Virus record (IMG/VR): IMGVR_UViG_2537561691_000015
Reading direction: 5' to 3' (one strand)
DNA from: a virus
Taxonomy: Duplodnaviria; Heunggongvirae; Uroviricota; Caudoviricetes
Length of the DNA stretch: 23,647 nucleotides
This document shows, in pieces, positions 1-17,358 of the stretch. Numbering within the stretch: position 1 is the first letter of the stretch; each line of letters starts with the position of its first letter. The position numbers and the translations under genes were made by a program. The notes under the pieces were generated by a model. The model was not told the origin of the DNA. It made no database searches and was given only the letters and a program-made list of their open reading frames with translations.

Positions 1-1002
1 TTACCCTCTATTGTCAAAAGGGTTTAATTCAACAGCAGCCTCTAAATGACCCGGAGCAAAATGCGCATAACGCATAGTCATTTTTATATCGCTATGCCCC
101 AGTATTTTTTGCAACACAAGAATATTTCCGCCCCGCATCATAAAATGACTAGCAAACGTGTGACGTAGCACATGAGTTAATTGCCCATCAGGGAGCTCTA
201 TCTTCGCTCTCTTAATTGCAGCGTCAAAAGCCTCATAACATGGTGAAAATAGCGCTCCTCGTTTTTTAGGAAGCATAGCCTGCAATTGAGGTGAAATCGG
301 TACAGTGCGGTTCTTCTTTCCTTTAGTTTTAACAAATGTGATTCGACCGGGCAGTACTTGAGATTGCTTTAATCCTTCTGCTTCACTCCACCGAGCACCA
401 GTCGCAAGCCCAATACGGACAACAACCCCCAAATCTTTATTCCGTGACTCATCACACGCAATCAAAAGGCGTTCAATCTCATCTACATACAGAAACGCCA
501 GCTCCTTTTCTTCCTCACGAAACTTGCGAATTCCAGTCAGGGGGTTTTCACCAGACCACTCCCCAAGGCGCTTCAGTTCGGCAAAAACAGCATGTAGATA
601 TGACTGCTCGCGATTAACGGTTGCTTCACTAAGTTTTTTCTTCCCCTTGGGATTCCATTCTCCTGATAGCCTTCTTTCCCGATAAGTAGCAAACATATTT
701 TTGTCAAACTGAGAAGCAAATGGATCTCCCAGCCTAGAACAAATCGCCTCAAGTTTGACTTTGCGCTCTGCACCAGAGGACAAGGTTTTGCCGTACATCT
801 CAAACCAACGAGCAATCAACTCAGAAAGACGAGGACCAGAACCATCTTGAAACTCGTCTCCAACTCTACTATTCATTAAACGGCGCTCATAAGAGAGCGC
901 CTCACTTTTTGTCGCAAACTGTTTACGAATGCGTTTTCCCGATGCTCCGTAGGGATAACATTCGCAAAGCCATTTACCTGATGGAATCTTACGAACCGAC
1001 AT
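1..1002 (-). CDS. int: Tyrosine integrase (P2 Int-like), complete, stop codon at window edge
   Basis: 333 aa ORF; C-terminal catalytic box 'LRHTFASHF...GHSDIKMTMRYAHF' typical of tyrosine recombinases; last gene of the repressor operon as in P2. Confidence 0.9.
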   Translation of the reverse strand: MSVRKIPSGKWLCECYPYGASGKRIRKQFATKSEALSYERRLMNSRVGDEFQDGSGPRLSELIARWFEMYGKTLSSGAERKVKLEAICSRLGDPFASQFDKNMFATYRERRLSGEWNPKGKKKLSEATVNREQSYLHAVFAELKRLGEWSGENPLTGIRKFREEEKELAFLYVDEIERLLIACDESRNKDLGVVVRIGLATGARWSEAEGLKQSQVLPGRITFVKTKGKKNRTVPISPQLQAMLPKKRGALFSPCYEAFDAAIKRAKIELPDGQLTHVLRHTFASHFMMRGGNILVLQKILGHSDIKMTMRYAHFAPGHLEAAVELNPFDNRG

Positions 1003-1007
1003 TTTTG

Positions 1008-1355
1008 TTACTTATCACATAAATCAAATGCAGCCTTAGTGACGTCCCCCAGATTCTTTTTTAACCCAGGGGCGGCATCATTATCTAGCCAAAATGGATT
1101 ATTGTTATCTAACGGTAACGCACCAAATGTTTTACCTTTTATTCGAGCCAAACCTGTAAGCGCATATAACTTATTATCGTCAAAATTCATCACATAAGGA
1201 TTACCATCAAGACACTGCAATTGAACCTCATCTGTATTAAATGGCCATACTCCATTGAAACTCTCACGTTCAATAGTTTTAAAAGGCATTGCGACGGCGG
1301 AAAAAGAAAACATAGATAAAAAAGCAACTAATAGTTGAACCTTTTTTACTTTCAT
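1008..1355 (-). CDS. Small secreted/periplasmic protein of unknown function (cargo in lysogenic operon)
   Basis: 115 aa; N-terminal signal peptide 'MKVKKVQLLVAFLSMFSFSAVA'; two Cys (possible disulfide); GAGG ribosome-binding site upstream; stop 5 nt before int start. Confidence 0.6.
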   Translation of the reverse strand: MKVKKVQLLVAFLSMFSFSAVAMPFKTIERESFNGVWPFNTDEVQLQCLDGNPYVMNFDDNKLYALTGLARIKGKTFGALPLDNNNPFWLDNDAAPGLKKNLGDVTKAAFDLCDK

Positions 1356-1384
1356 GTCATTGCCTCAATTTAGCTCAAGTAAGA

Positions 1385-2035
1385 TTACAAATTAAAAAAC
1401 ATCCTAGAAATGGCTCCGCCTACCAAAACCCCTACGCAGATAAAGAATATTATTTCTTTTGGATAAAATCGGATTAATTCTGAAGCACGAAGGCGGACTT
1501 CTGGTAAGGTCGAATTCTCTGTGTGGCTTGATACCGATTGTTGCTCTAACCACGACAATGCAGACTGTAACTGAGAACGAGTAAGATCGTTTAAACGTCC
1601 TGTACCGAAATTGATATGGCAATACCGCAGAAGTTTTTGTCGAAGTCCACAGTCTTCACTGTTACGTAATAATAAACTTACAAGAGTCTTACAGGCATCA
1701 TGATCTTTACATCGCTCAAGCATTGCATGCAGAAAACTCTCCGCTGTTTTATATTGATTTATTGTCATATCATCAATACCAGCTACACCAATCTCCGCAT
1801 GTACTTTTTGCCAAATAATAAACGCTTCAGTATTGCTAGCTTCTGCAATAGCAGCAACCAAGCTATTTAGCTCCTTACGCTGTGCCTTAAGCAAAGGGCG
1901 AGCGTCATCATCATTATTCGAAGGGATTGCGATATTGACGGTATGAGAACCATCATATCGCTCTATCTGAATATTCTTTTCGTGAAAATCACGCCCAGCA
2001 ACGCGATTGTTTGAACCGTTTGAGTTGACGGCCAT
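1385..2035 (-). CDS. Tail-anchored membrane protein of unknown function (cargo in lysogenic operon)
   Basis: 216 aa; single C-terminal hydrophobic helix 'IIFFICVGVLVGGAISRMFF'; strong RBS GGGAGGTGA before ATG; starts 15 nt after repressor stop; N-terminal motif 'NNRVAGRDFHE' echoes the repressor C-terminus. Confidence 0.6.
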   Translation of the reverse strand: MAVNSNGSNNRVAGRDFHEKNIQIERYDGSHTVNIAIPSNNDDDARPLLKAQRKELNSLVAAIAEASNTEAFIIWQKVHAEIGVAGIDDMTINQYKTAESFLHAMLERCKDHDACKTLVSLLLRNSEDCGLRQKLLRYCHINFGTGRLNDLTRSQLQSALSWLEQQSVSSHTENSTLPEVRLRASELIRFYPKEIIFFICVGVLVGGAISRMFFNL

Positions 2036-2050
2036 GTCACCTCCCTACTA

Positions 2051-2455
2051 TCACCTACCCTTAGTTTCGTTATAGTCACGACCAGCGATACGGTTATTAC
2101 CACCAGAAATATTTAACTCACGCCCTGATGGCTGAGTTTCCTTTTCACTGCCCGCACTTTTTAAAGCCCCGATCACCGCGTTTTTTACATCTAACGAAGC
2201 TGCTCGAAAGCGAGTAATCAACTCCTGCTCATCATCGTTATAAGTTTCAGGTGAGTGAATTCCCAACACAACATACTGAACATCAAGGCCAAAACGAGAC
2301 AGCGCTGCCAAATACGCAGCATCAGGAAAGCTATCTCCTTTCTCATATCTAAGCTGAGTTAGCTTTTTGACTCCACCAATTTCGCTCATAGCAACTTGAC
2401 TAAGCCCCAATCTTTCCCTTTCCTCACGCAACCGCTGACCAATATCATTTTTCAT
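2051..2455 (-). CDS. HTH XRE-family immunity repressor (P2 C / 186 CI functional analogue)
   Basis: 134 aa; N-terminal helix-turn-helix 'LREERERLGLSQVAMSEIGGVKKLTQLRYEKGDSFP'; divergent from the early operon; first gene of the repressor-int operon. Confidence 0.8.
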   Translation of the reverse strand: MKNDIGQRLREERERLGLSQVAMSEIGGVKKLTQLRYEKGDSFPDAAYLAALSRFGLDVQYVVLGIHSPETYNDDEQELITRFRAASLDVKNAVIGALKSAGSEKETQPSGRELNISGGNNRIAGRDYNETKGR

Positions 2456-2470
2456 ACAAAAACCTTGACA

Positions 2471-2488
2471 GGTATCTTTTTTGATACC
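2471..2488. promoter_or_regulatory. Putative operator: perfect 6-6-6 palindrome GGTATC-TTTTTT-GATACC in the repressor/early-operon switch region
   Basis: Seen directly in sequence; lies between a TTGACA hexamer (2465-2470) and the early-gene start; GATACC half-site recurs at 2549-2554. Confidence 0.4.
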
Positions 2489-2530
2489 AAAATGATTTCA
2501 CGAGCTATTAGATGATCACAATATACCACT

Positions 2531-2737
2531 ATGAAACAAGTTCTTCACGATACCAGATCACGCATTCCGCGTAACACCGCCACAGGTCCAAGACTGGCAC
2601 TTCGGCTGTCCCTCGAAGAGCGAGCCGTCATTGATGAAATGGCAGCTAAAGAACAACGCTCATCCTCTAACATGGCGCGCATGATCTTCCTTCGCGGCCT
2701 AGAGCTAACCCAGAAAGAACAAAACAAATCTTCCTGA
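2531..2737 (+). CDS. Small DNA-binding regulator, first gene of early operon (Cox/Apl position; possibly ribbon-helix-helix)
   Basis: 68 aa; position equivalent to P2 cox / 186 apl; segment 'LALRLSLEERAVIDEMAAK...MARMIFLRGLE' resembles RHH-type regulators; family assignment not verified. Confidence 0.5.
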   Translation: MKQVLHDTRSRIPRNTATGPRLALRLSLEERAVIDEMAAKEQRSSSNMARMIFLRGLELTQKEQNKSS

Positions 2738-2753
2738 TCAGGAGGCTAGTGGG

Positions 2754-2957
2754 ATGTCAGGTATAACCATCAATATCAATGTGAATGCCCCCTATGTATC
2801 CCTGCAGAAATATGCAGAGATAACAGGTATCCCTCTTAATACATGCAAAAAGATGTTGGCTGACGGTCGAATTATTATCCGCCCCAAACGTGCCAAAATG
2901 GAAAAGCCTGAAGTAAACCTTGTGGCGATGTTAAAAGACGCTTTGGCTAACAGCTAA
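2754..2957 (+). CDS. Putative excisionase/AlpA-like HTH DNA-binding protein
   Basis: 67 aa; 'YVSLQKYAEITGIPLNTCKKMLADGRI' resembles excisionase-type winged HTH; RBS CAGGAGG upstream. Confidence 0.5.
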   Translation: MSGITININVNAPYVSLQKYAEITGIPLNTCKKMLADGRIIIRPKRAKMEKPEVNLVAMLKDALANS

Positions 2958-2978
2958 AACAATGAACAGAGCATCATC

Positions 2979-3329
2979 ATGAAAAAACACGCTAATAATC
3001 CATACTCCAAATTTCGTAATGGCGTAGAACGCCATATACACCACGTCGCTACCAGTGCATCACGTAGTAACAATCGCTATAACCTGAACGAGACGCACGC
3101 AACACCAGATGGGCACGCTGTAAAACAAATCGGCGAACACACCTGGCTGATTGAGAAAGCTGGAATAGTGGTTCACAGATGCTCACGCAATCCGTTTACC
3201 GGAAACCGCATTTTTGCATTAAGCAACGGCGATAATCAGTTCGGGCAGGATTTTACATTGTACGAAGCACTGCGCACAGTCGATCGTTTGCTTCGCGGGC
3301 AAAGTTTTATTAAACAGGCTGATTTATAA
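2979..3329 (+). CDS. Hypothetical early-operon protein
   Basis: 116 aa ORF with ATG start, co-directional and tightly spaced in the early operon. Confidence 0.5.
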   Translation: MKKHANNPYSKFRNGVERHIHHVATSASRSNNRYNLNETHATPDGHAVKQIGEHTWLIEKAGIVVHRCSRNPFTGNRIFALSNGDNQFGQDFTLYEALRTVDRLLRGQSFIKQADL

Positions 3330-3339
3330 CAGGTGCTTT

Positions 3340-3618
3340 ATGACTAAAGACCATGCACAAGGTGTATTTATCCGCTTTATTGATTTTCGCGGTGAACTGT
3401 TATTACGCGCATCAGCTATTGACGGAGTAGTTCCATCTGAAAAAAATGCAGCTACCTACGTTTATCTGAACGGTACGCGCCTGACAGTAGAACTTCCGTA
3501 CCAGACCGTTCGCGAAATAATTAACGAAGCTGAAAAAGCTCGTCAGGTTAATGGCGATGAACCCTATATCGAAATTATCTGCATGGATTCAGAAGCTGAA
3601 ATTCAGAAAGCAGATTAA
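3340..3618 (+). CDS. Hypothetical early-operon protein
   Basis: 92 aa ORF, ATG start, RBS-like AGGTG upstream. Confidence 0.5.
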   Translation: MTKDHAQGVFIRFIDFRGELLLRASAIDGVVPSEKNAATYVYLNGTRLTVELPYQTVREIINEAEKARQVNGDEPYIEIICMDSEAEIQKAD

Positions 3619-3629
3619 AGGGCGTTGCG

Positions 3630-3872
3630 ATGGGCAAAGAATATAAGACTCTCATAAACAAAGCACTTGAGCGTTTTTATTTTCGCTTAAGTGCATCAGG
3701 TACTCATGCTGAACGTGCAGCCCGTGACTCATTAACCAGGGCAATCCGGAGTCTGTATGACGTGGCTTTTTACGCTGATGATCTGGATGCACTTAACGAA
3801 CTTTCCGAGCTGATCTGTGCCGCAGAATGCGGGGAGCATATTGAACCGTATAAGCTGGGGAATATTGCATGA
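3630..3872 (+). CDS. Hypothetical early-operon protein
   Basis: 80 aa ORF, ATG start 11 nt after the previous stop. Confidence 0.5.
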   Translation: MGKEYKTLINKALERFYFRLSASGTHAERAARDSLTRAIRSLYDVAFYADDLDALNELSELICAAECGEHIEPYKLGNIA

Positions 3873-3982
3873 GTATATTTATCTCATGGCTTGTTCTGAT
3901 TATTTCGGTGGTCTGCGCCATTGGGATTATGCGAATTATTCGTTCAGTAAAAAAGATTGACCGCTTTTTCACTGGCGAATAA
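3869..3982 (+). CDS. Small hydrophobic peptide (37 aa), possible small membrane protein
   Basis: ORF MSIFISWLVLIISVVCAIGIMRIIRSVKKIDRFFTGE read directly; start overlaps upstream stop (ATGA); below the length cut-off of the ORF track. Confidence 0.3.
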   Translation: MSIFISWLVLIISVVCAIGIMRIIRSVKKIDRFFTGE

Positions 3983-4069
3983 CAGCGCAAATAAAAACCC
4001 TAGGTTAAATAAGAAAATGTAAAAACAATCCGCATTCGCGGAGGTATTCGCACACGCCCAGGAGGTGTA

Positions 4070-4273
4070 ATGGCAATTAAGCATTTTCCTGTCGTTCGTT
4101 TCACTTCCAGAGGACGTGAATACGAAGTCGACGAACGCCTGATTACCACAATCGACAAACACCGCTCAGAAAAGGATGCACACCACATCTATCTCACTGA
4201 CGGTACTTACTTCTGCGCCACTAATGTGGTGCGGGTGAATCTTATCCGACAGGTACAGGATCCACGCAAATGA
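4070..4273 (+). CDS. Hypothetical early-operon protein
   Basis: 67 aa; strong RBS CAGGAGGTG before ATG. Confidence 0.5.
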   Translation: MAIKHFPVVRFTSRGREYEVDERLITTIDKHRSEKDAHHIYLTDGTYFCATNVVRVNLIRQVQDPRK

Positions 4274-4596: not shown

Positions 4597-4986
4597 ATGA
4601 TTGACGCTCATGACTTCACAAGATGGGTGCGCACACAGGACACCCGTCTGGCTCCCGTTCTTCAGGGATTATTTGATCTCTACATCCGTAGTCGTGACAA
4701 CAGAGCACGCACTACAAAACCGGAGAATGCAGACACCCTTTATTTCACAGTAGACGACTGCTACCGCGTGGACTTAACACCACACGGGCTGGCGTTGCGC
4801 TGCCTGACACCGCATGGCGAATCACTGCTGGCGTATTACGACTCCCCGACCTCCGTATTTGCGGCAATGCTGGCGCATCACACTGCTGGCGGGTGTGCCT
4901 CGCTGAGTGAATACACCGCTGAATTTAACCGCCTTTCCACCCTCTTCTCGCAGGAGTGGCAGCGCGTGACGGGATACCAGCCATGA
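4597..4986 (+). CDS. Hypothetical early-operon protein immediately upstream of the replication gene
   Basis: 129 aa; its stop overlaps the ATG of gene A (ATGA). Confidence 0.5.
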   Translation: MIDAHDFTRWVRTQDTRLAPVLQGLFDLYIRSRDNRARTTKPENADTLYFTVDDCYRVDLTPHGLALRCLTPHGESLLAYYDSPTSVFAAMLAHHTAGGCASLSEYTAEFNRLSTLFSQEWQRVTGYQP

Positions 4987-7748
4987 GTGAGTTTGCATGG
5001 AGCTGGAATGAACCACGGCCAGCCATTGATCCGGACAGATTTACGGAGCGCAGGCAGGAAACTGAAACCGAGCTGCAACGCGCCATCCGTTACTACCTTG
5101 AGGCGGACAAAAAGGCCCGTAAAGAACAGGAAGCGAAGGAGGAAGCCTTTTTCGCACAATCCACCGTGGGTAAAAAACTCATGGCATCCCTTGAGGAAGC
5201 CGGACAGCGTGAAAAGCTGGCACAAAGCATCATCAGCAAGCGTCAGGCAACAGAACAAGACCCGGTGGCCCGTGCTTTTGCCACACTGAAGGTGCTTCCC
5301 GTTTATCTGCGTGAACCTCTGAGCCGCCACCTCTCTTTCCTGCGCAAAAAACAGGAATCCGATCGTCAGAAAGGCAAAAAGAGCTGGCAGGCTGAACGCT
5401 ACGCGCGCGGAACCCTGCGCAAAATATTCGTACGTCTGGACCGCACCGACAGCCGTTGGCTGACACCGGGTTATCGGTCCCTTGCCGGACGTGAACGCCT
5501 GGACGATTTGCTTTACCTGCCGCAACTCAACAAACACCAGATACAGACGCTGGCCACCATGACGGCGGCGATGTTCAGCAGCACCTTCGAAAAACTCTGC
5601 GATGGTTTTGGCGCGACCGATGGCGAGCTGACCATGGATGTAACGCTGAAGGCGTATCAGATGCTGGCCCGCATGGCGTTACACTTGCACGCCATGCCTC
5701 CGCATTATGACGCACTGACAACAGACAAAGACCGGAGGAACGAACCGGACACAGAACTGCTGCCGGGCGCAATCCTTCGCCTGACCTGTGCGGAATGGTG
5801 GAAACGCAAACTGTGGCTGTTACGTTGCGAGTGGAGAGAAGAACAACTCCGCGCCGCCTGTCTGGTTTCCAGAAAAACATCGCCCTATTTGAGCCAGGAC
5901 GCGTTAAGCGAGTTTCGCGCACAGCGCGAGAAAACACGCGATTTCCTGAAAAGTTTCATGCTGGAAAACGAAGACGGGTTCACGATTGATCTCGAGACGG
6001 TGTATTACGCGGGAGTAAGTAACCCGGTTCACCGTAAGGCAGAAATGATGGCCACCATGAAGGGGCTGGAACTTCTGGCCGAAGCCCGTGGCGACAAAGC
6101 GGTGTTTCTGACTGTCACCTGCCCGTCAAAATACCACGCCACAACAGAGAACGGTCATCCGAATCCCAAATGGAACGGGGCCACCATGCGCGACTCCAGC
6201 GATTACCTGGTTAACACGTTTTTTGCGGCGGTCCGCAAAAAACTGAACCGCGACGGTCTTCGCTGGTATGGCATCCGCACGGTGGAGCCTCACCATGACG
6301 GCACCGTGCACTGGCATATGATGGTCTTTGCTCATCCGGAAGAAATCGACAGCATCGTGGCCATCACCCGCGATATTGCCATTCAGGAAGACCGCCACGA
6401 GCTGGGCAATGATATTACTCCGCGCTTTAAGGCGGAGTATGTCGACGGCTCAAAAGGCACACCAACCAGCTATATCGCGACCTACATCGGAAAGAACCTG
6501 GACAGCCGCGCCGTGGATGGCATCGACCCGAAAACGGGCAAGCCACGCGTTGACCACGAAACCGGAAAATCAATGGCCGAGAGTGTGGAGCGCGCCATCG
6601 GCTGGGCGCGCCTTCATCGGGTCCGCCAGTTCCAGTTCTTTGGCATCCCCTCCCGTCAGGTGTGGCGTGAACTGCGCCGCCTTGCCAGCCAGATGGCACG
6701 CAACCCGGAAGGCCCGCAACGACTGAAAGATGACGCAATGGATGCGGTACTCGCTGCCGCCGATGCCGGGTGTTTTGCCACCTACATTGAAAAACAGGGC
6801 GGCGTACTTGTTCCACGCAAAGACTACCTGATTCGCACCGCCTACGACCTCGCAGATGAGCTGAATGATTACGGCGAACAGAGCGTACAGATTTACGGGA
6901 TCTGGTCACCACTCATCGGGGAATCCTCCCGTGTGTGCACGCATCCGGATAACTGGAAACTGGTAAGACGTAAACCGGAAACGGAAGACAGCGCCCGCGA
7001 AAATGGTTTTGACCTTCAGGGCGGCCCTGCCGCCCCTTGGACTCGTGGCAATAACTGTCCCCGTGTACAGGAAACGGACAACAACGGGACAGAACAGCCG
7101 GAAGAACGGCCAGCACCGTGGCCGCGGCTTCCTGAAGGCGTTGACGTGAATGAATGGATGCGCTCACTGAAACGGCACGAACGCCGGGCACTGATGCGTT
7201 CGCTGCGTGACAAACAGGCAAAAAACAGCAGTGATGAAATGCAGAACTGGACACAGAGCCGCAAACAGCCACAGCCTTTGCCTGATAACCACGAGTTACT
7301 CGCTAAAGAATGGCGGGAGGCTGCTGAATCTCTCGGCCTGCATATCGGTGAACAGCAGATGCAGCACCTGTTACGAGGCGGCAGTCTGTACGTTGGCGGC
7401 AGCATCATTGCACCGCAGGGATTTGAAATTGTACGCAAACAGGATACCCGCCCGGACAGCCGAATCACGCAGCTCTGGCAACGCCTGAGTCGTAATCACG
7501 GCGTAAGCAGCACGGAGATCCGCCATAACCCGGTCGCCAGCTATCTGGAACAACTAGAGGCATCAGACCCTGAAGCCGCCGCACGCCTGGCATCCACACT
7601 TCAGCAAGACCAGAACACCATGAAAACACCCGTTACCGTACTTTCTGACATGCTGCGCGCCATCCGCGACGCAGAGCACGCACAGAGAATCAGTGAAACC
7701 ACTAAACATGCTCGCAAAAAAATCAGTTTATTGCATCGAACACGATAG
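4983..7748 (+). CDS. A: Rolling-circle replication initiation endonuclease (P2 gpA family)
   Basis: 921 aa from ATG 4983 (the track's 4956 start is GTG); HUH-type motif 'VEPHHDGTVHWHMMVF' closely matches my recollection of P2 A; last gene of early operon as in P2. Confidence 0.9.
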   Translation: MSEFAWSWNEPRPAIDPDRFTERRQETETELQRAIRYYLEADKKARKEQEAKEEAFFAQSTVGKKLMASLEEAGQREKLAQSIISKRQATEQDPVARAFATLKVLPVYLREPLSRHLSFLRKKQESDRQKGKKSWQAERYARGTLRKIFVRLDRTDSRWLTPGYRSLAGRERLDDLLYLPQLNKHQIQTLATMTAAMFSSTFEKLCDGFGATDGELTMDVTLKAYQMLARMALHLHAMPPHYDALTTDKDRRNEPDTELLPGAILRLTCAEWWKRKLWLLRCEWREEQLRAACLVSRKTSPYLSQDALSEFRAQREKTRDFLKSFMLENEDGFTIDLETVYYAGVSNPVHRKAEMMATMKGLELLAEARGDKAVFLTVTCPSKYHATTENGHPNPKWNGATMRDSSDYLVNTFFAAVRKKLNRDGLRWYGIRTVEPHHDGTVHWHMMVFAHPEEIDSIVAITRDIAIQEDRHELGNDITPRFKAEYVDGSKGTPTSYIATYIGKNLDSRAVDGIDPKTGKPRVDHETGKSMAESVERAIGWARLHRVRQFQFFGIPSRQVWRELRRLASQMARNPEGPQRLKDDAMDAVLAAADAGCFATYIEKQGGVLVPRKDYLIRTAYDLADELNDYGEQSVQIYGIWSPLIGESSRVCTHPDNWKLVRRKPETEDSARENGFDLQGGPAAPWTRGNNCPRVQETDNNGTEQPEERPAPWPRLPEGVDVNEWMRSLKRHERRALMRSLRDKQAKNSSDEMQNWTQSRKQPQPLPDNHELLAKEWREAAESLGLHIGEQQMQHLLRGGSLYVGGSIIAPQGFEIVRKQDTRPDSRITQLWQRLSRNHGVSSTEIRHNPVASYLEQLEASDPEAAARLASTLQQDQNTMKTPVTVLSDMLRAIRDAEHAQRISETTKHARKKISLLHRTR

Positions 7749-7793
7749 AAATATAGAGCTAAGGCCGCCCTAGGAATAAGGAGGCCTTGAAAA

Positions 7794-8603
7794 TCAACCT
7801 ATCTTCTTATGAAGTAAAATTAATTTCTGTATTAATTTGGAATGAAACATTGATATATCAGAAATTCTTATTTCATTAGGCGAGTCTATATGATTGGAAA
7901 CTTCTTCCTCCAAGGAGTCACAAATACTTTCTAGATTTTCAATATCTGCATTTAATTCTGGAAAACTATTAAACAAATATAATGAATCCCGTAACTCTCC
8001 TAGTTTTGGTAAAAGAGTATTACTGAATACACTAAGAAACTCCTCTTCTGATAATGCCATGGAGTTTTTAAAACTTTGCACAACATCGAATGCCAACCCA
8101 TTAATTTTAGGCATAATTACTTCTCTTACCCAATACCCTTCATTAATAGCTTCTTTACGTTCTTTTCTATGTTGAACACAAGGAATAACAAAGGATGAAA
8201 CTAAAGCAAATAAAGAGATGCCAATAGAAATCCACTCTGGACCATTTTCCGGAACCTTTACAATATTATATATATCATAGGAATTTGGAACATCTTTGAA
8301 ATAATTAGCAAATAAATCTTTTTTGTTATCCCTTGCCAGAGATAACTTATGAAAGGTGTCGTTTGCCTTTTCACAAAACATCAAGCCATCATTCGGGTTT
8401 CCGGATAACAAAAACGGTGATGATATACCACTAAGTCCTGAATCGGAAATATAAAAAGGCGTGTTTGGATAAAGTGATTCATTACATTCAATGTTTTCTT
8501 TATTGGAAAAATCTGTCACAGAGCAAGCTGCGGGGAATATAAAAAAAATGACAGACAGCGCTGTCATTTTGATTTGAAAAATATTTTTAAAAGAAGGGAA
8601 CAT
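7794..8603 (-). CDS. Membrane protein with N-terminal signal peptide and one internal transmembrane helix (third gene of cargo operon)
   Basis: 269 aa; N-terminal 'KNIFQIKMTALSVIFFIFPAACS' signal-like; TM 'WISIGISLFALVSSFVIPCV'; AAGGAG RBS; overlaps upstream gene by 17 nt; AT-rich codon usage. Confidence 0.6.
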   Translation of the reverse strand: MFPSFKNIFQIKMTALSVIFFIFPAACSVTDFSNKENIECNESLYPNTPFYISDSGLSGISSPFLLSGNPNDGLMFCEKANDTFHKLSLARDNKKDLFANYFKDVPNSYDIYNIVKVPENGPEWISIGISLFALVSSFVIPCVQHRKERKEAINEGYWVREVIMPKINGLAFDVVQSFKNSMALSEEEFLSVFSNTLLPKLGELRDSLYLFNSFPELNADIENLESICDSLEEEVSNHIDSPNEIRISDISMFHSKLIQKLILLHKKIG

Positions 8604-8931
8604 TTTTATGTAAGCCTCTCCTTACAGCTCTATCTAATTCAGAAAGCATACCTTCTTTATATTCACGACCATCAAGTACAGTGCGACTATAAAATTCGCT
8701 AGGCGAAGAAAATTTCGGCAAAACCGTTTCAAGCATACCTAGAAAGTATGAGCTTGATACAACAATTCCCTTGGGGATCAATAGATATAATCTATCATTA
8801 CTGGTTGTGCAAAATTTCCCTATATTAAAGTAATCATAGGCCTGGCGCCCATTAGAACGTCCAGCAAAAAGTTTCTTGTTACTATCTTTTACTAACTTAT
8901 TGAAATCTATGGTGATGTCAGCCATTTTCAT
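8587..8931 (-). CDS. Small STAS-like (anti-sigma-antagonist / DUF4325-like) protein, second gene of cargo operon
   Basis: 114 aa; 'IDF...GIVVSSSYFLGMLETVL' resembles the SpoIIAA/STAS phospho-serine region; starts 10 nt after gene-1 stop with a GAGGA RBS; family call from memory only. Confidence 0.55.
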   Translation of the reverse strand: MKMADITIDFNKLVKDSNKKLFAGRSNGRQAYDYFNIGKFCTTSNDRLYLLIPKGIVVSSSYFLGMLETVLPKFSSPSEFYSRTVLDGREYKEGMLSELDRAVRRGLHKNVPFF

Positions 8932-8941
8932 GTACCTGTCC

Positions 8942-10321
8942 TCAAGTTCGCTGGGTGGCGTTTTCTGGTAGAGGAAAACGAATATTGATCATAACTCCAG
9001 GAAATCGAGCATCCTTCATACGCTTAAGATAGTTGCGATCCGGTTCAGATTCAAGCCCTACATCATTAAAAGGGTAAGTAAAAATGTCACTTTCCTCGTC
9101 ATTAACCAACCTTTGCTTTAATTTATATGATCCATCAAAGTTAATATGAGTACTACCAGATATTAAAGTCATTTTTATCCCACCTTTAATATCTCTTCCC
9201 ATTTTTTTAAGATTATCATGCATATCTTGAAATAACTTCAATAATTCAATTGTTCCGGTGCCAGAACTGTCAGTTTCTTTCTCGTTTTTACAACTCACCC
9301 GCCCTTGCAAGGCCGCTACTGTTGTTAATCCTTCCTTAAACATACCCTTTTTCTTAATATGCTTATTTATGTATGGATTAACTTGTTGACTTAATGAAAA
9401 ATGATCCTCAGGTAAATTATCAAAAGTTTCGCTGATAGTTTTCCCAAAATTGAAAACAGCCAACTCACATATGGGGTTTCGTACGTTATTATTAACAAAA
9501 CCTCTCAAATACCAGCGTGGGCGTTGCTCTAACCCACAATGCCGCTCCGCATTATCAAGGAGTTCCCCCATGCAGGAAGTTAAATGCTTTTCTGCCTCAT
9601 GTACAAGTTTTAAATTATGATCATTTAAGCATTCGTTTATGTATGCGGTAAATTTTTCAGCAGTGACATTTTTTCTGTCATGGGCAAAGGCAGAAGCATT
9701 CTCCTTTCCGATACTATCAGCAGAGAAGATTCGTTTCTTCGGATTCGCTTTTTTCGATGCTTCAGTAGAGTCCAGAACTTTACCTGGTGCAGCATTACTA
9801 ATCTCTTTTACAAGCCCGACATCCCTGATAATTTCAAGATACTGTTCATCTTTAGGGTAGATACCATTAATCTGAATCATCGTATCTTTGAAATTTATAT
9901 TACTTTGCCTTGCTGCTGTAAGAGCAACACCTAATAGACACTCAAGACCAAGACAGTGTTTTTTGTTTTTCTTGTAATCAAAAATATATGATTTCCATTT
10001 ACCTCTTGCAATTAATTTTGTGGCTGCACTAATAAATAGCAGAGATTTCTCTGGATTGTCATATAAGTCAAAATATTTAGGTATTAATATCTTCTCTGCG
10101 TCACGACGAAGAATTGATGAGTCATACTCTTTTATAATCGATATATTTTCAATGAACGTAGCGACTTGGTTTTGGACAGGAGTTGTTTCATCGGAAAAAC
10201 GAAGACTACCATTTTTCTCTTGCGCAGGCTTTTTTTTCTTAGCTCTCTCAACGCTACGAAGAAATCGCAACCATCCACGTAAAAAGGTTCTTTTAGAATC
10301 TTCTTTATTGATTTTTTTCAT
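8942..10321 (-). CDS. GHKL/HATPase_c-like ATPase-domain protein (SpoIIAB/RsbW-type N-box), first gene of cargo operon
   Basis: 459 aa from ATG 10321 (the track's 10417 start is TTG and lies inside phased repeats); N-box-like 'GELLDNAERH' (E-x3-N-A-x2-H) and G2-like 'DSSGTGTIELL' in the C-terminal half; N-terminal ~230 aa basic region of unknown function; AT-rich. Confidence 0.6.
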   Translation of the reverse strand: MKKINKEDSKRTFLRGWLRFLRSVERAKKKKPAQEKNGSLRFSDETTPVQNQVATFIENISIIKEYDSSILRRDAEKILIPKYFDLYDNPEKSLLFISAATKLIARGKWKSYIFDYKKNKKHCLGLECLLGVALTAARQSNINFKDTMIQINGIYPKDEQYLEIIRDVGLVKEISNAAPGKVLDSTEASKKANPKKRIFSADSIGKENASAFAHDRKNVTAEKFTAYINECLNDHNLKLVHEAEKHLTSCMGELLDNAERHCGLEQRPRWYLRGFVNNNVRNPICELAVFNFGKTISETFDNLPEDHFSLSQQVNPYINKHIKKKGMFKEGLTTVAALQGRVSCKNEKETDSSGTGTIELLKLFQDMHDNLKKMGRDIKGGIKMTLISGSTHINFDGSYKLKQRLVNDEESDIFTYPFNDVGLESEPDRNYLKRMKDARFPGVMINIRFPLPENATQRT

Positions 10322-10400
10322 TTCCAAATGTTCCTGCAAAGTTAACGTAGCCCACAAGGCGCTAAGTATACTTTCTGCTATATTTTTTTCACTATACAAA

Positions 10401-10427
10401 TGCACAATAGTGCACAAATTTGCACAA
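10401..10427. promoter_or_regulatory. Three helically phased direct repeats TGCACAA (starts 10401, 10411, 10421) upstream of the cargo operon; candidate operator/activator site
   Basis: Seen directly; exact 10-bp periodicity; on the operon strand they read TTGTGCA and sit just upstream of -10-like TATAGT and TATACT hexamers. Confidence 0.4.
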
Positions 10428-10801
10428 TTTTTTTGAACGACTTTTTGCCCTTCCGGCCCGCATGGTGGCTGGATCCGTCAAGGATCCGTGCGTGCACAAA
10501 AAAACGCATTTTTTCTGCGCGCAGGTGACGGGGGAACAGCCCGCGTTTCAGGGGGTAAATAGCATCCCCTGAACGATGTCGCAGCGACACAACAGAATGG
10601 CTGTATTTCTCACGCTGAGCGTGAAAAAGACGTGAGGGCTTTTGATTTGATGGGGTGAAAGGTAAGGCCGTCAAAATCGCACTGAGACGGCGAGAACATG
10701 CAGTCAACGCGGTGGGATTGCGTAAGAGTCTGACTGTCGATGATGGCAATCAGCAGGAAAGCGTCGTGAAATTATCTGACTGATACAGGAGCTGGAGAGT
10801 C

Positions 10802-10851: not shown

Positions 10852-11898
10852 TCAGGATGTGGGCTGGGTGTCTAACAGTGCGTAAGGGTTAAAGCGGATC
10901 ACCTCTTCGCCAAGCCAGTCATTGATGTGCTTCATGGCCTCCATGACGGGCATCAGCTCGTTAATTGCGTAAACCCGCGCGGCCTTCTCCACATCACCAA
11001 ACGCACTTTTTTCGCCCGGCATCGCCCCCATCAGTTGCGGCGGAACGCGGTGCGCAGCCAGCACATCATCACGGGATGCCGCCTTAACATTCATGAACTC
11101 ATCTTTTGCGGTGATCTGCTGGAACGGCAAAATTTGCACCCCTTCTTTGCCCCCGTTGGGCGCATGAATGAGCACGTTTTTAAATGCACCACCACCACGC
11201 GCACCCTGTAACGTTTCTTTCAGGGAGTCCATGCTTTCGCGGTTTACCTGCGCTGCACCGATGTAGATGATGCACCCGGCGTGGGATCCGTTGTCGTAGT
11301 ACAGTTTTCTGAACATGTCCGCCGAATGAGAAAGGCTGGCCGAGAGTAATGCGCCAAGATATTCCGGCATGCCGTAGATTTCCTGGTTAATATCCGGATT
11401 CATCAGGTGGCACACTTTGCCAGGGCGAAACTGGAACGCGTCCTTGCCATCCTGCACATACCACCATGATTCAAGATCGCTTCCGCGTCGCATGTATTTC
11501 GCCAGGGCGTGCCGTAATTTAAGCGGTTCGCCGAGCATATTGCTCCGAAGCTCAAGGAATGCGTTACCGAACACAAACCAGTCCAGCGCCAGCGCCGAGA
11601 AATCCTGCCGGGAAAGCAGCGGGTGCGGGATGTAGCAACCGAGTAATACATTGCGCTTAAAGTAAAGCGCAGACTGATGCCAGGACGTTTGCCGGGCGGC
11701 TCTTGCCAGACCGTACCAGTCCACCGGGGTTTCATACCACCGCCCGTTATCAGCACAGTACATATTGTCCAGCAGGTCATGCCCGGTCAGGCGATAAGGA
11801 CCATCAAATGTGAATGCACTGAGCGATGATTCTTTCCTGAGCGCATCAGCGAGATCAATGCGTGAACTCATGCGCACTTTTTTATTTTTTCTGCTCAT
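10852..11898 (-). CDS. Q: Portal protein (P2 gpQ-like)
   Basis: 348 aa (P2 Q about 344 aa as I recall); start overlaps P stop (ATGA); canonical position next to large terminase. Confidence 0.9.
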   Translation of the reverse strand: MSRKNKKVRMSSRIDLADALRKESSLSAFTFDGPYRLTGHDLLDNMYCADNGRWYETPVDWYGLARAARQTSWHQSALYFKRNVLLGCYIPHPLLSRQDFSALALDWFVFGNAFLELRSNMLGEPLKLRHALAKYMRRGSDLESWWYVQDGKDAFQFRPGKVCHLMNPDINQEIYGMPEYLGALLSASLSHSADMFRKLYYDNGSHAGCIIYIGAAQVNRESMDSLKETLQGARGGGAFKNVLIHAPNGGKEGVQILPFQQITAKDEFMNVKAASRDDVLAAHRVPPQLMGAMPGEKSAFGDVEKAARVYAINELMPVMEAMKHINDWLGEEVIRFNPYALLDTQPTS

Positions 11899-17158: not shown

Positions 17159-17358
17159 TGAAAGTGAAGGCACTGGAAGGCGACACCGTGGATTCGCTCT
17201 GTTTCCGGTACTACGGCACGACGCAGGGCGTCACCGAAAAGGTGCTGGATGCCAACCCCGGACTCTGTCAGCAGGTATTTCTGGACGCCGGGCAGGACGT
17301 GGAGATGCCGGAGCCGGAGAAGAAGAAACGAGAAATGATTCAGTTGTGGGGGGAGTAG
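17158..17358 (+). CDS. X: Tail protein X (LysM-like small protein)
   Basis: 66 aa from ATG 17158 overlapping the L stop (TGATG); size and position match P2 X. Confidence 0.7.
   Translation: MKVKALEGDTVDSLCFRYYGTTQGVTEKVLDANPGLCQQVFLDAGQDVEMPEPEKKKREMIQLWGE

Follow-up and report, generated by a model that had tools for sequence, protein, structure and literature searches.

The 23,647-nucleotide (nt) stretch of DNA analyzed here, recorded as IMGVR_UViG_2537561691_000015 and called the window below, carries a prophage of the P88 group (Peduoviridae, Xuanwuvirus) that is 100% identical to the prophage adjoining yecA in Escherichia coli strain GMM076 and 96.5% identical to Escherichia phage 520873. 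On its minus strand lies a four-gene lysogeny operon of repressor, partner, cargo and integrase, comprising in this order a helix-turn-helix (HTH) repressor gene (2455..2051), a gene for a 216-residue protein (2035..1385), a gene for a 115-residue protein (1355..1008) and int (1002..1), with gaps of 15, 29 and 5 nt between them. Our main subject is the 216-residue protein, termed the partner, whose N-terminus mirrors the C-terminal tail of the repressor. The original prediction on this DNA had described the two middle genes as cargo placed between repressor and int, tightly packed behind good ribosome-binding sites and encoding a tail-anchored and a secreted protein. Open reading frames (ORFs) were indeed found at exactly these coordinates, and the close packing was confirmed, with GGGAGGTG preceding the ATG at 2035 and GAGG standing 7 nt ahead of the ATG at 1355. 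The tail anchor agrees with a hydrophobic C-terminus that forms a helix (residues 183-214) in the AlphaFold2 (AF2) model, and secretion agrees with a Sec signal with an AXA site in a protein of the periplasmic YebY family. Comparison of the C-int spacing, as had been suggested, showed that int and C are adjacent in P88, 66 bp apart, so the two genes in the window are truly extra. The features of the operon are the following.

2051..2455, minus strand: immunity repressor, 134 residues (Pfam HTH_31/HTH_3; phrog_8/3/4 repressors)
2066..2116, minus strand: C-terminal tail motif of the repressor, LNISGGNNRIAGRDYNE, residues 114-130 (mirrors the N-terminus of the next product)
1385..2035, minus strand: tail-anchored partner, 216 residues (Pfam PF27202 Flk_N; phrog_5825, 2e-101)
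1979..2029, minus strand: N-terminal motif of the partner, VNSNGSNNRVAGRDFHE, residues 3-19 (conservation; AF2-disordered region)
1523..1900, minus strand: Flk_N helical domain of the partner, residues 46-171, predicted to be cytoplasmic
1388..1453, minus strand: predicted membrane anchor of the partner, residues 195-216 (hydrophobic stretch IIFFICVGVLVGGAI at the very end of the protein, within the AF2 helix 183-214)
1008..1355, minus strand: cargo gene, secreted 115-residue protein of the DUF2511/YebY family (Pfam PF10709, 25.9 bits vs. a cutoff of 21)
1..1002, minus strand: P2-type tyrosine integrase, last gene of the operon (Pfam Int_N 5e-32, Phage_integrase 2.5e-22)

The repressor is composed of an XRE-type HTH domain (residues 5-64), a helical hairpin (74-101) and a disordered C-terminal tail (102-134), with AF2 confidence values (predicted local distance difference test, pLDDT) of about 90 at residues 5-64 and below 52 at residues 102-134. 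Because its gene is divergent from an Arc-like and a Cox-like gene, it occupies the position of an immunity repressor, and the protein is homologous to the annotated repressors B3 ORF18, BcepMu gp17, KS10 gp13 and Ps59. It ends in ...LNISGGNNRIAGRDYNETKGR, where the tail motif is followed by the basic end TKGR. A tail motif of the form [IV]N[IV]SGxGNR[VI]AGRD[YF]NE is present in about 60 of the 120 repressor homologues listed, and all repressor tails end in a basic cluster, e.g., KK, KKRK or RRRKTK. One Salmonella enterica contig (L046, 767-2801; L numbers designate the loci compared) harbors three tandem repressor paralogues of 141, 124 and 121 residues followed by a single Flk_N partner; the first two paralogues have full NRVAGRDYNE tails, the tail of the third is degenerate, and a GRDYH remnant lies in another frame of the 135-nt spacer. 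These tandem repressors may constitute a stacked-immunity array.

The partner is built of the N-terminal mirrored motif, the Flk_N helical domain, a variable linker and a C-terminal membrane anchor. In the AF2 model, residues 1-44 are disordered (pLDDT below 50) and residues 49-171 are helical with pLDDT of about 90. The protein starts with MAVNSNGSNNRVAGRDFHEKNIQ, with G6, N9, R10, D15 and E18 unchanged in all of 38 homologues that span many genera of Enterobacterales. The cytoplasmic domain is about 60% identical across genera and the anchor alone varies, its position being conserved and its sequence not; from the hydrophobic C-terminus and the modeled helix, we infer a tail-anchored protein with a cytoplasmic body. 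One variant of the partner is found on 754 contigs, mostly of Klebsiella. Precomputed PF27202 (Flk_N) annotation is present on all close homologues, and the NCBIfam model of Flk (NF007987) matches residues 38-168 with an E-value of 6e-15 and 55 bits, below its cutoff of 353; a PADLOC search with the repressor, the partner and the cargo protein gave no relevant match. The first half of Flk_N also weakly matches (E 1e-5 to 1e-2) the C-terminal regions of proteins with Rha or AntA N-termini, and among the partner's fold matches, all of them weak, the best viral one is an ORF6C protein. Two such proteins, P0370 and P0395, carry half a Flk_N behind Rha (Phage_pRha, 6e-26) and AntA (3e-24) plus ORF6C N-terminal domains. 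Through these fusions, Flk_N would be connected with C-terminal modules known from phage proteins of the antirepressor type, a connection that may fit a role in repressor control, if only loosely. At the gene junction (2035-2053), the ORFs of repressor and partner share one reading frame, with the consecutive stop codons TGA TAG TAG and then three codons containing a Shine-Dalgarno (SD) sequence between them; both the frame relation and the spacing vary at other loci.

To compare the two termini, the last 40 repressor residues were aligned locally with the first 40 partner residues, with composition-preserving shuffles as reference. In the window, tail and head align with a score of 62 (z = 9.3 vs. 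shuffles). In other branches of the repressor family the tails differ, and each time the N-terminus of the adjoining partner carries the matching variant, as listed below.

Pectobacterium: repressor tail QIFNGDISGQFAGNQIIN; partner N-terminus QEFNGTAQGQFSSRDIIN
Gilliamella: repressor tail GQIAGGNIY; partner N-terminus EQIAGRDIY
P. aeruginosa: repressor tail QQFNGPVGTVTSGDVVN; partner N-terminus QQFHDRVHQVAAGDIKN
Metagenome L035: repressor tail NQTFHGSVGQSVAGSITN; partner N-terminus SQDFHGEVGQAAGGDINN
L036: repressor tail FHGDVGQVVNAD; partner N-terminus FDGPVGQAIQAD
L037: repressor tail NHGQVVE..NH..GP; partner N-terminus NFGQIAE..NHYAGP
B3: repressor tail ISVTGDGNRTAGRDFHE; partner N-terminus IEVTGSNNIVAGRDFIE
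BcepMu: repressor tail QVFHGSVGQAV; partner N-terminus QEFNKPVGQAI
KS10: repressor tail MVASGSGITQVG; partner N-terminus MSASGFGIIQVA

The ten cognate pairs, which differ in their motif variants, yielded scores of 33-62 and z values of 3.7-9.3. Their summed score was 444, compared with a mean of 235 (standard deviation 27, maximum 367) when the partners were deranged among the repressors, and none of 73,693 derangements reached the cognate sum. The aligned motif cores span 13-25 residues, are rich in G, N and Q, and lie in AF2-disordered termini beside well-folded domains. At identical residues the same codon is used in only 84 of 190 cases (44%), so the likeness appears to be held by selection on the protein; gene conversion was considered as its source and rejected on this low codon identity. 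A six-frame search of the window for a third copy of the motif recovered only the two known copies and an unrelated hit at 17287. Some partners display tandem copies at the N-terminus: BcepMu gp18 (L039, 2863-3645) has QEFNKPVGQAIQAGEAN followed by GSVAGRDIVNVNHG, and P0298 has NRTAGRNYYE followed by NNVAGRDVIHV.

All 13 species-level genome loci recovered by family profile search, in Rosenbergiella, Mixta, Izhakiella, Enterobacter, Erwinia, Kosakonia, Symbiopectobacterium, Yersinia, Hafnia and Serratia, present a tail-bearing HTH repressor, the partner, and then a slot of variable content and int; the L018 contig stops early, and the order of slot and int was read only where contigs extend far enough. 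The repressor-partner order is likewise kept in prophages of Klebsiella, E. coli, Citrobacter and Salmonella. A search from the repressor side revealed further homologues in metagenomic contigs and in Mu-like transposable phages of Pectobacterium, Gilliamella and Pseudomonas aeruginosa, recognized as Mu-like by an rve transposase, a MuB-like ATPase and a Mu protease. These Mu-like carriers have, directly after the repressor, a small protein that is mostly membrane-anchored and often Flk_N-like, with the pairs B3 ORF18/ORF20, BcepMu gp17/gp18 and KS10 gp13/gp12 in named phages; a tblastn search of phage records with the P. aeruginosa partner gave no match. At every locus examined with a tail-bearing repressor, the partner gene comes directly next, and the one examined locus with a tail-less repressor, in a related P2-like prophage of E. 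coli, lacks the partner too. Some partners are devoid of Flk_N, such as B3 ORF20 with two transmembrane segments and the L037 protein with a zinc ribbon plus transmembrane segments, but retain the N-terminal motif and a membrane segment; what stays constant is thus the match of the termini and, almost without exception, attachment to the membrane. The P2-like and Mu-like carriers have no gene in common besides the repressor-partner pair, and their respective lytic regulators, Cox and Ner, are not homologous. B3 and L031 have 100% identical Ner proteins and differ in their repressor-partner pairs and motif classes, which indicates that the pair is exchanged or inherited as a unit. Movement of the whole switch (repressor, lytic regulator and partner) as one cassette was also considered and was rejected, Cox-type and Ner-type regulators being unrelated.

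The E. coli prophage with the tail-less repressor (L033, 3357-4132) encodes, in the interval from repressor to int, a 117-residue CxxC protein and a 140-residue tail-anchored protein; by eye, the former has an N-terminus similar to that of the first of two slot ORFs in L026 (4609-5257). These ORFs may belong to a further small module, linked to the membrane, that occupies the same place in the operon.

In view of the constant linkage and of the co-varying motif common to both proteins, we place the 216-residue gene within the immunity module and do not regard it as an insertion; its product is very probably a functional companion of the repressor and not cargo. As for how the two might cooperate, we favor, with moderate confidence, a two-protein immunity module in which the membrane-anchored partner would bind the repressor via the shared motif and modulate it. 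We surmise that the tail motif of the repressor and the head motif of the partner would pair by homotypic beta-strand pairing, that the membrane-bound partner would thereby trap or tether some of the repressor molecules, or modulate them in another way, and that this action would tune or trigger the switch between lysogeny and the lytic cycle. Several observations weigh against this scheme: 1) the motif variants are partly related, with a Q-x-F-x-G-x-V-G-Q theme common to L027, L031, L035, L036 and BcepMu, and the NRxAGRD theme of the window recurring in B3; 2) a non-cognate head outscores the cognate one for L031, L036, BcepMu and B3, so the derangement test demonstrates matching of classes and not ten independent events; 3) residue-level co-variation of tail and head within the NRxAGRD class was sought by eye and none was seen; 4) KS10 gp12 has the motif and no obvious membrane anchor; 5) a natural HTH-Flk_N fusion was not found among 140 family clusters, the only fusions there being of a Rha or AntA N-domain to half a Flk_N; 6) direct binding of tail to head is suggested by co-variation alone; and 7) a partner on the repressor's own transcript would be an odd design for a simple anti-repressor, such that a post-translational trigger would be needed.

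A more specific form of this scheme holds that the mirrored motif is a true prion-like (amyloid) signaling element, which we consider improbable. In that event, a membrane-proximal cue would cluster the partner, whose head motif would template the repressor tail into a cross-beta aggregate; the repressor would be switched off irreversibly, yielding an SOS-independent, self-propagating switch for induction (or anti-immunity), and the motif classes would serve as private channels for heteroimmune phages. Such a switch would be in use among P2-like and Mu-like phages throughout Proteobacteria.

Instead of binding each other, the two termini could carry a tag that is read by a third factor, such as a protease or chaperone of the host (FtsH, ClpXP, Lon) or a further protein of the phage, with the partner acting as a competing pseudo-substrate or as an adaptor that controls repressor turnover. 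Lambda CIII is known to control CII turnover, and the tail of the Mu repressor acts with ClpXP. Both motifs here lie at exposed, disordered termini, the basic clusters ending all repressor tails are reminiscent of MuA-type ClpX tags, and a membrane anchor would put the partner beside FtsH. However, different motif classes coexist within one host genus, as evidenced by NRVAGRDYHE and QIFNGDISGQF in Pectobacterium and by the B3 class and the QQF class in P. aeruginosa, rendering a single host reader less parsimonious than cognate pairing. Furthermore, the 23.6-kb window has no third copy of the motif, and the P2-like and Mu-like carriers have no other gene in common. Taken together, we deem a third reader rather unlikely.

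The proposal closest to the original prediction is that both genes are independent accessory genes (morons) riding on the repressor promoter, the tail-anchored protein blocking DNA entry of superinfecting phage at the inner membrane and the secreted one acting in the periplasm, in the manner of lambda rexAB, P22 sieA or K139 glo. Their position in the lysogeny operon and their predicted membrane and periplasmic locations are in keeping with this, as is K139 glo, which encodes a periplasmic protein and is described as the immunity gene of its family, and the 115-residue gene does behave as a swappable cassette. For the 216-residue gene, on the other hand, we find the proposal unlikely, since this gene accompanies every tail-bearing repressor examined, including those of Mu-like phages with unrelated virions and injection machinery, its cytoplasmic domain is conserved across genera with variation confined to the anchor, and its product mirrors the repressor tail; moreover, neither protein has a match in PADLOC, and the PHROG families to which they belong carry no functional annotation. 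The assignment as cargo thus holds for the 115-residue gene, with its low GC content and at least nine alternative contents of the slot, and does not hold for the 216-residue gene. By the same token, occurrence as conserved core in homologous phages, which the original prediction had named as evidence against cargo, is seen for the 216-residue gene, constant with tail-bearing repressors, but not for the 115-residue gene, which is replaced in relatives. The 216-residue protein may nevertheless have an exclusion role in addition to its repressor-linked one.

It is very unlikely, in our view, that the 216-residue protein mimics the cellular protein Flk (Fluke) to manipulate the flagellar type III secretion switch in lysogens, thereby changing motility or blocking flagellotropic phages. 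The homology itself is real, as the NF007987 and Pfam Flk_N matches attest, but the former falls far short of the family cutoff (55 vs. 353 bits), and the partner has one Flk_N unit where family members of 320-430 residues have two matched stretches. Additionally, the variant present on 754 contigs resides mostly in Klebsiella, and K. pneumoniae is non-flagellate; partners lacking the Flk_N domain retain the motif and the membrane segment, and mimicry leaves the mirrored motif unexplained. That the likeness of tail and head is a now functionless relic of a small tandem duplication across the junction, or of an ancestral gene split, is scarcely credible. The two copies do lie only about 30-60 nt apart in the DNA, and the ORFs of the window share one frame across TGA TAG TAG and three codons. 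Yet ten diverged pairs from Enterobacterales, Orbales, Pseudomonas and Burkholderia retain the similarity while their flanking linkers diverge; both families count motif residues among their invariant positions; identical residues show low codon identity; and frame relation and spacing differ between loci.

In contrast to the partner, the 115-residue gene is true swappable cargo. Its product begins with MKVKKVQLLVAFLSMFSFSAVA followed by MPF, comprising, by inspection, a Sec signal peptide (residues 1-22) with an AXA site, and has cysteines at positions 48 and 113. Besides the Pfam match, it is related to phrog_2950 (1.7e-39) and to YebY (PDB 7n0j, E 0.0067, the alignment ending at the C-terminal Cys), and its homologues carry precomputed PF10709 annotation; these relationships identify it, at the level of sequence, as a predicted periplasmic, disulfide-bonded protein of the YebY family. 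With regard to hallmarks of a moron, the gene is replaced or absent among related phages and deviates in base composition (GC content 35.9%, and 28.4% at third codon positions, vs. 50.9% for the window and 44% for its neighbors); consensus scans, which are weak evidence, found no promoter-like or terminator-like site of its own, so it departs from the classical definition of a moron. Superinfection exclusion or lysogenic conversion by this protein is a reasonable guess; from family membership and by analogy, the likeliest role, also a guess, would be at the envelope, either in excluding an incoming phage or in binding an envelope-acting compound. An IS1A element lies inside the DUF2511 gene in E. 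coli OkiPb01684 (L049, 1308-2432), a knockout that is tolerated there.

In related prophages, the slot between partner and int has at least nine different contents:

DUF2511: the window; Rosenbergiella L014; Klebsiella L041-43; Citrobacter L044-45
DUF8087: E. coli L010-13 (same yecA site); L016; L022
288-292-residue protein: L006-9 and L017 (BRCT domain found in the Klebsiella copy)
291-residue protein, unrelated to the preceding one: L019-21
242-244-residue membrane protein: L015 and L024
126-residue secreted protein: L023
Two small ORFs: L026
440-459-residue protein: L046-47
Empty: L025

The 288-residue slot protein found in many Klebsiella prophages (L006, 5647-6513) has an N-terminal BRCT domain (Pfam 5e-5, above cutoff), which is unusual for a phage accessory gene. 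The borders of the exchanged DNA are sharp. In a sister E. coli prophage at the same yecA site, DNA homology stops at 1005/1006, just upstream of the int ATG, and resumes at 1533; in two Klebsiella prophages that share one attachment (att) site and differ in cargo, the flanks are 90-93% identical on both sides, and the sequences differ from a point some 136 nt ahead of the partner stop up to precisely the start of int. From these sharp and recurrent break points, the cassette can be delimited as running from the end of the partner's conserved domain to the int start codon, with the linker and anchor of the partner included:

1006..1532, minus strand: variable cassette, made up of the 3' part of the partner gene, coding for linker and anchor, and the cargo gene (DNA-homology breaks)

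The int genes of the window and of a sister prophage with other cargo are 90% identical in DNA. Among 5426 complete E. coli genomes, the cargo gene or cassette was detected in 507 and the repressor allele in 520, and the two travel together.

Further features of the prophage concern the switch region and an island beyond it. The operon has the P2-type arrangement in that repressor and int lie on one strand, divergent from the cox-type early operon, but a C-type repressor adjoining int, as in P2, is not found, the repressor here being of a 134-residue XRE type with two genes intervening. int starts 5 nt past the cargo stop, without a clear SD sequence, and a consensus scan of the minus strand from 1 to 3400 found no terminator-like site or hairpin. 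Judging from the operon layout, its genes would be expressed constitutively in the lysogen. On the opposite strand are the following features.

2456..2957, plus strand: divergent switch region and start of the early operon (promoter scan, PHROG matches)
2465-2493, plus strand: promoter-like site TTGACA-17-CAAAAT (promoter scan)
2531..2737, plus strand: Arc-like ORF (phrog_3431, 1e-28)
2754..2957, plus strand: Cox-like ORF (phrog_575, 1.2e-27)

The Arc-like ORF encodes 68 residues; an identical E. coli RefSeq record annotates a 45-residue ORF on the opposite strand instead, which is probably a mis-annotation. In E. coli 22AR0750 (L048, about 3000-4250), ISKpn26 has inserted between the switch region and the Cox-like gene and has probably locked the prophage. 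Farther downstream, a low-GC island (7750-10450; 34-40% vs. 53-60% in the flanks) lies between replication gene A (4956..7748) and a portal-like ORF (10852..11898) and contains three minus-strand ORFs of 269 (7794..8603), 114 (8587..8931) and 491 residues (8942..10417), with no match to any of the three in Pfam or PADLOC. Since its position matches the tin/old anti-phage hotspot of P2, the island is a candidate defense system.

P2-like and Mu-like phages are largely not SOS-inducible, and the natural triggers of their switches are poorly understood. If our interpretation of the pair is correct, the conserved membrane-anchored partner, held to the repressor by a private, co-varying terminal motif, would add a new element to the control of lysogeny and would link repressor activity to the cell membrane; should the motif work by templated aggregation, amyloid signaling would extend from cell-death and defense pairs to a transcriptional switch. 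The module is common, being carried by about 510 of 5426 complete E. coli genomes (about 9%), including O157:H7, and by hundreds of contigs mostly of Klebsiella, and a repressor-partner module is also present in the model phages B3 and BcepMu, where it could easily be tested. The slot before int constitutes a well-defined cassette site whose contents (DUF2511, DUF8087, BRCT and membrane proteins) are candidate conversion or defense genes.

Our literature search found no paper on a membrane-anchored repressor partner, on prophage Flk-like proteins or on the motif; KS10 gp12 had been listed as lacking a significant match, and the annotation of BcepMu gp18 goes no further than membrane protein. 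Among known systems, Ant/Rha antirepressors with ORF6C-like C-terminal modules resemble the partner in matching the first half of Flk_N, with phrog_245 (Ant) as a weak match, but the partner of the window has no Ant, Rha or BRO N-domain and is predicted to be membrane-anchored. Cellular Flk (Fluke/RflH) of Salmonella and E. coli has the same Flk_N helical domain and a C-terminal tail anchor, likewise facing the cytoplasm; its sequence presumably lacks the NRxAGRD N-terminal motif. At about 330 residues with two Flk_N-like stretches and no adjoining repressor, it differs from the single-domain, 216-residue partner, and it acts on the specificity switch of flagellar type III secretion (PMC13344023).

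For the cargo protein, the closest relatives of known character are YebY (PDB 7N0J) and MlbQ of the DUF2511 family, with a signal peptide and with Cys48 and Cys113 at the same numbered positions. In YebY, a periplasmic protein, these cysteines form a structural disulfide, and the YebY paper had already noted that, in Enterobacteriaceae, homologues also stand in contexts unrelated to copper, next to genes for a XerD-like recombinase and a CI-type phage repressor; MlbQ binds a lantibiotic. The cargo protein is nonetheless only about 25-30% identical to YebY and is not encoded in a yobA-yebZ-yebY copper operon. In PSP3, a DUF2511 gene (gp28, 29% identical) sits exactly between cI and int as in the window, but that cI encodes a different, 286-residue repressor without a Flk_N partner. 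K139 orf2-glo similarly places accessory genes between repressor and int, with the periplasmic Glo treated, by description, as an immunity or exclusion protein.

In its layout, the repressor-partner pair is most reminiscent of amyloid-signaling pairs, namely E. coli Bab/Agp with bacterial amyloid signaling sequence (BASS) 11, the Bell/NLR pairs with BASS1-10 and fungal HET-S/NWD2, in which one motif is C-terminal and its counterpart N-terminal in the products of adjacent, collinear genes, an arrangement that defines such pairs at the genome level. The repressor and partner genes are likewise collinear, 0-55 nt apart across loci, and the resemblance extends to several motif classes, each matched within its own pair, and may extend to the disordered, G/N/Q-rich character of the terminal segment; the tandem motif copies in BcepMu gp18 and P0298 recall the pseudo-repeats described for some BASS and HET-s motifs. 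Bab/Agp is an abortive infection (Abi) system residing in an E. coli prophage. The known pairs, however, combine a pore-forming Bell/HeLo killer with an NLR/STAND or TPR sensor instead of an HTH repressor with a small tail-anchored Flk_N protein, and the motif here, at about 17-26 residues, is rather short. We therefore describe a known motif-pair layout in a new functional setting, likening the pair to the amyloid-signaling family by layout only, without filing it as a member.

Lambda cI-rexA-rexB, expressed as the PRM operon, offers a different parallel in that genes are co-transcribed with the repressor in the lysogen and one of them encodes an inner-membrane protein; besides their part in exclusion, RexA and RexB have been reported to contact CI and in this way to affect the transition from lysogeny to the lytic cycle. 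The two systems have no relation in sequence or fold, RexB is polytopic and not tail-anchored, and neither Rex protein has a terminal motif in common with CI; in addition, rexAB is lambda-specific, whereas the repressor-partner pair is spread over P2-like and Mu-like phages. Nevertheless, among genes that modulate a switch and are transcribed together with a repressor, lambda cI-rexAB offers the nearest analogy in function.

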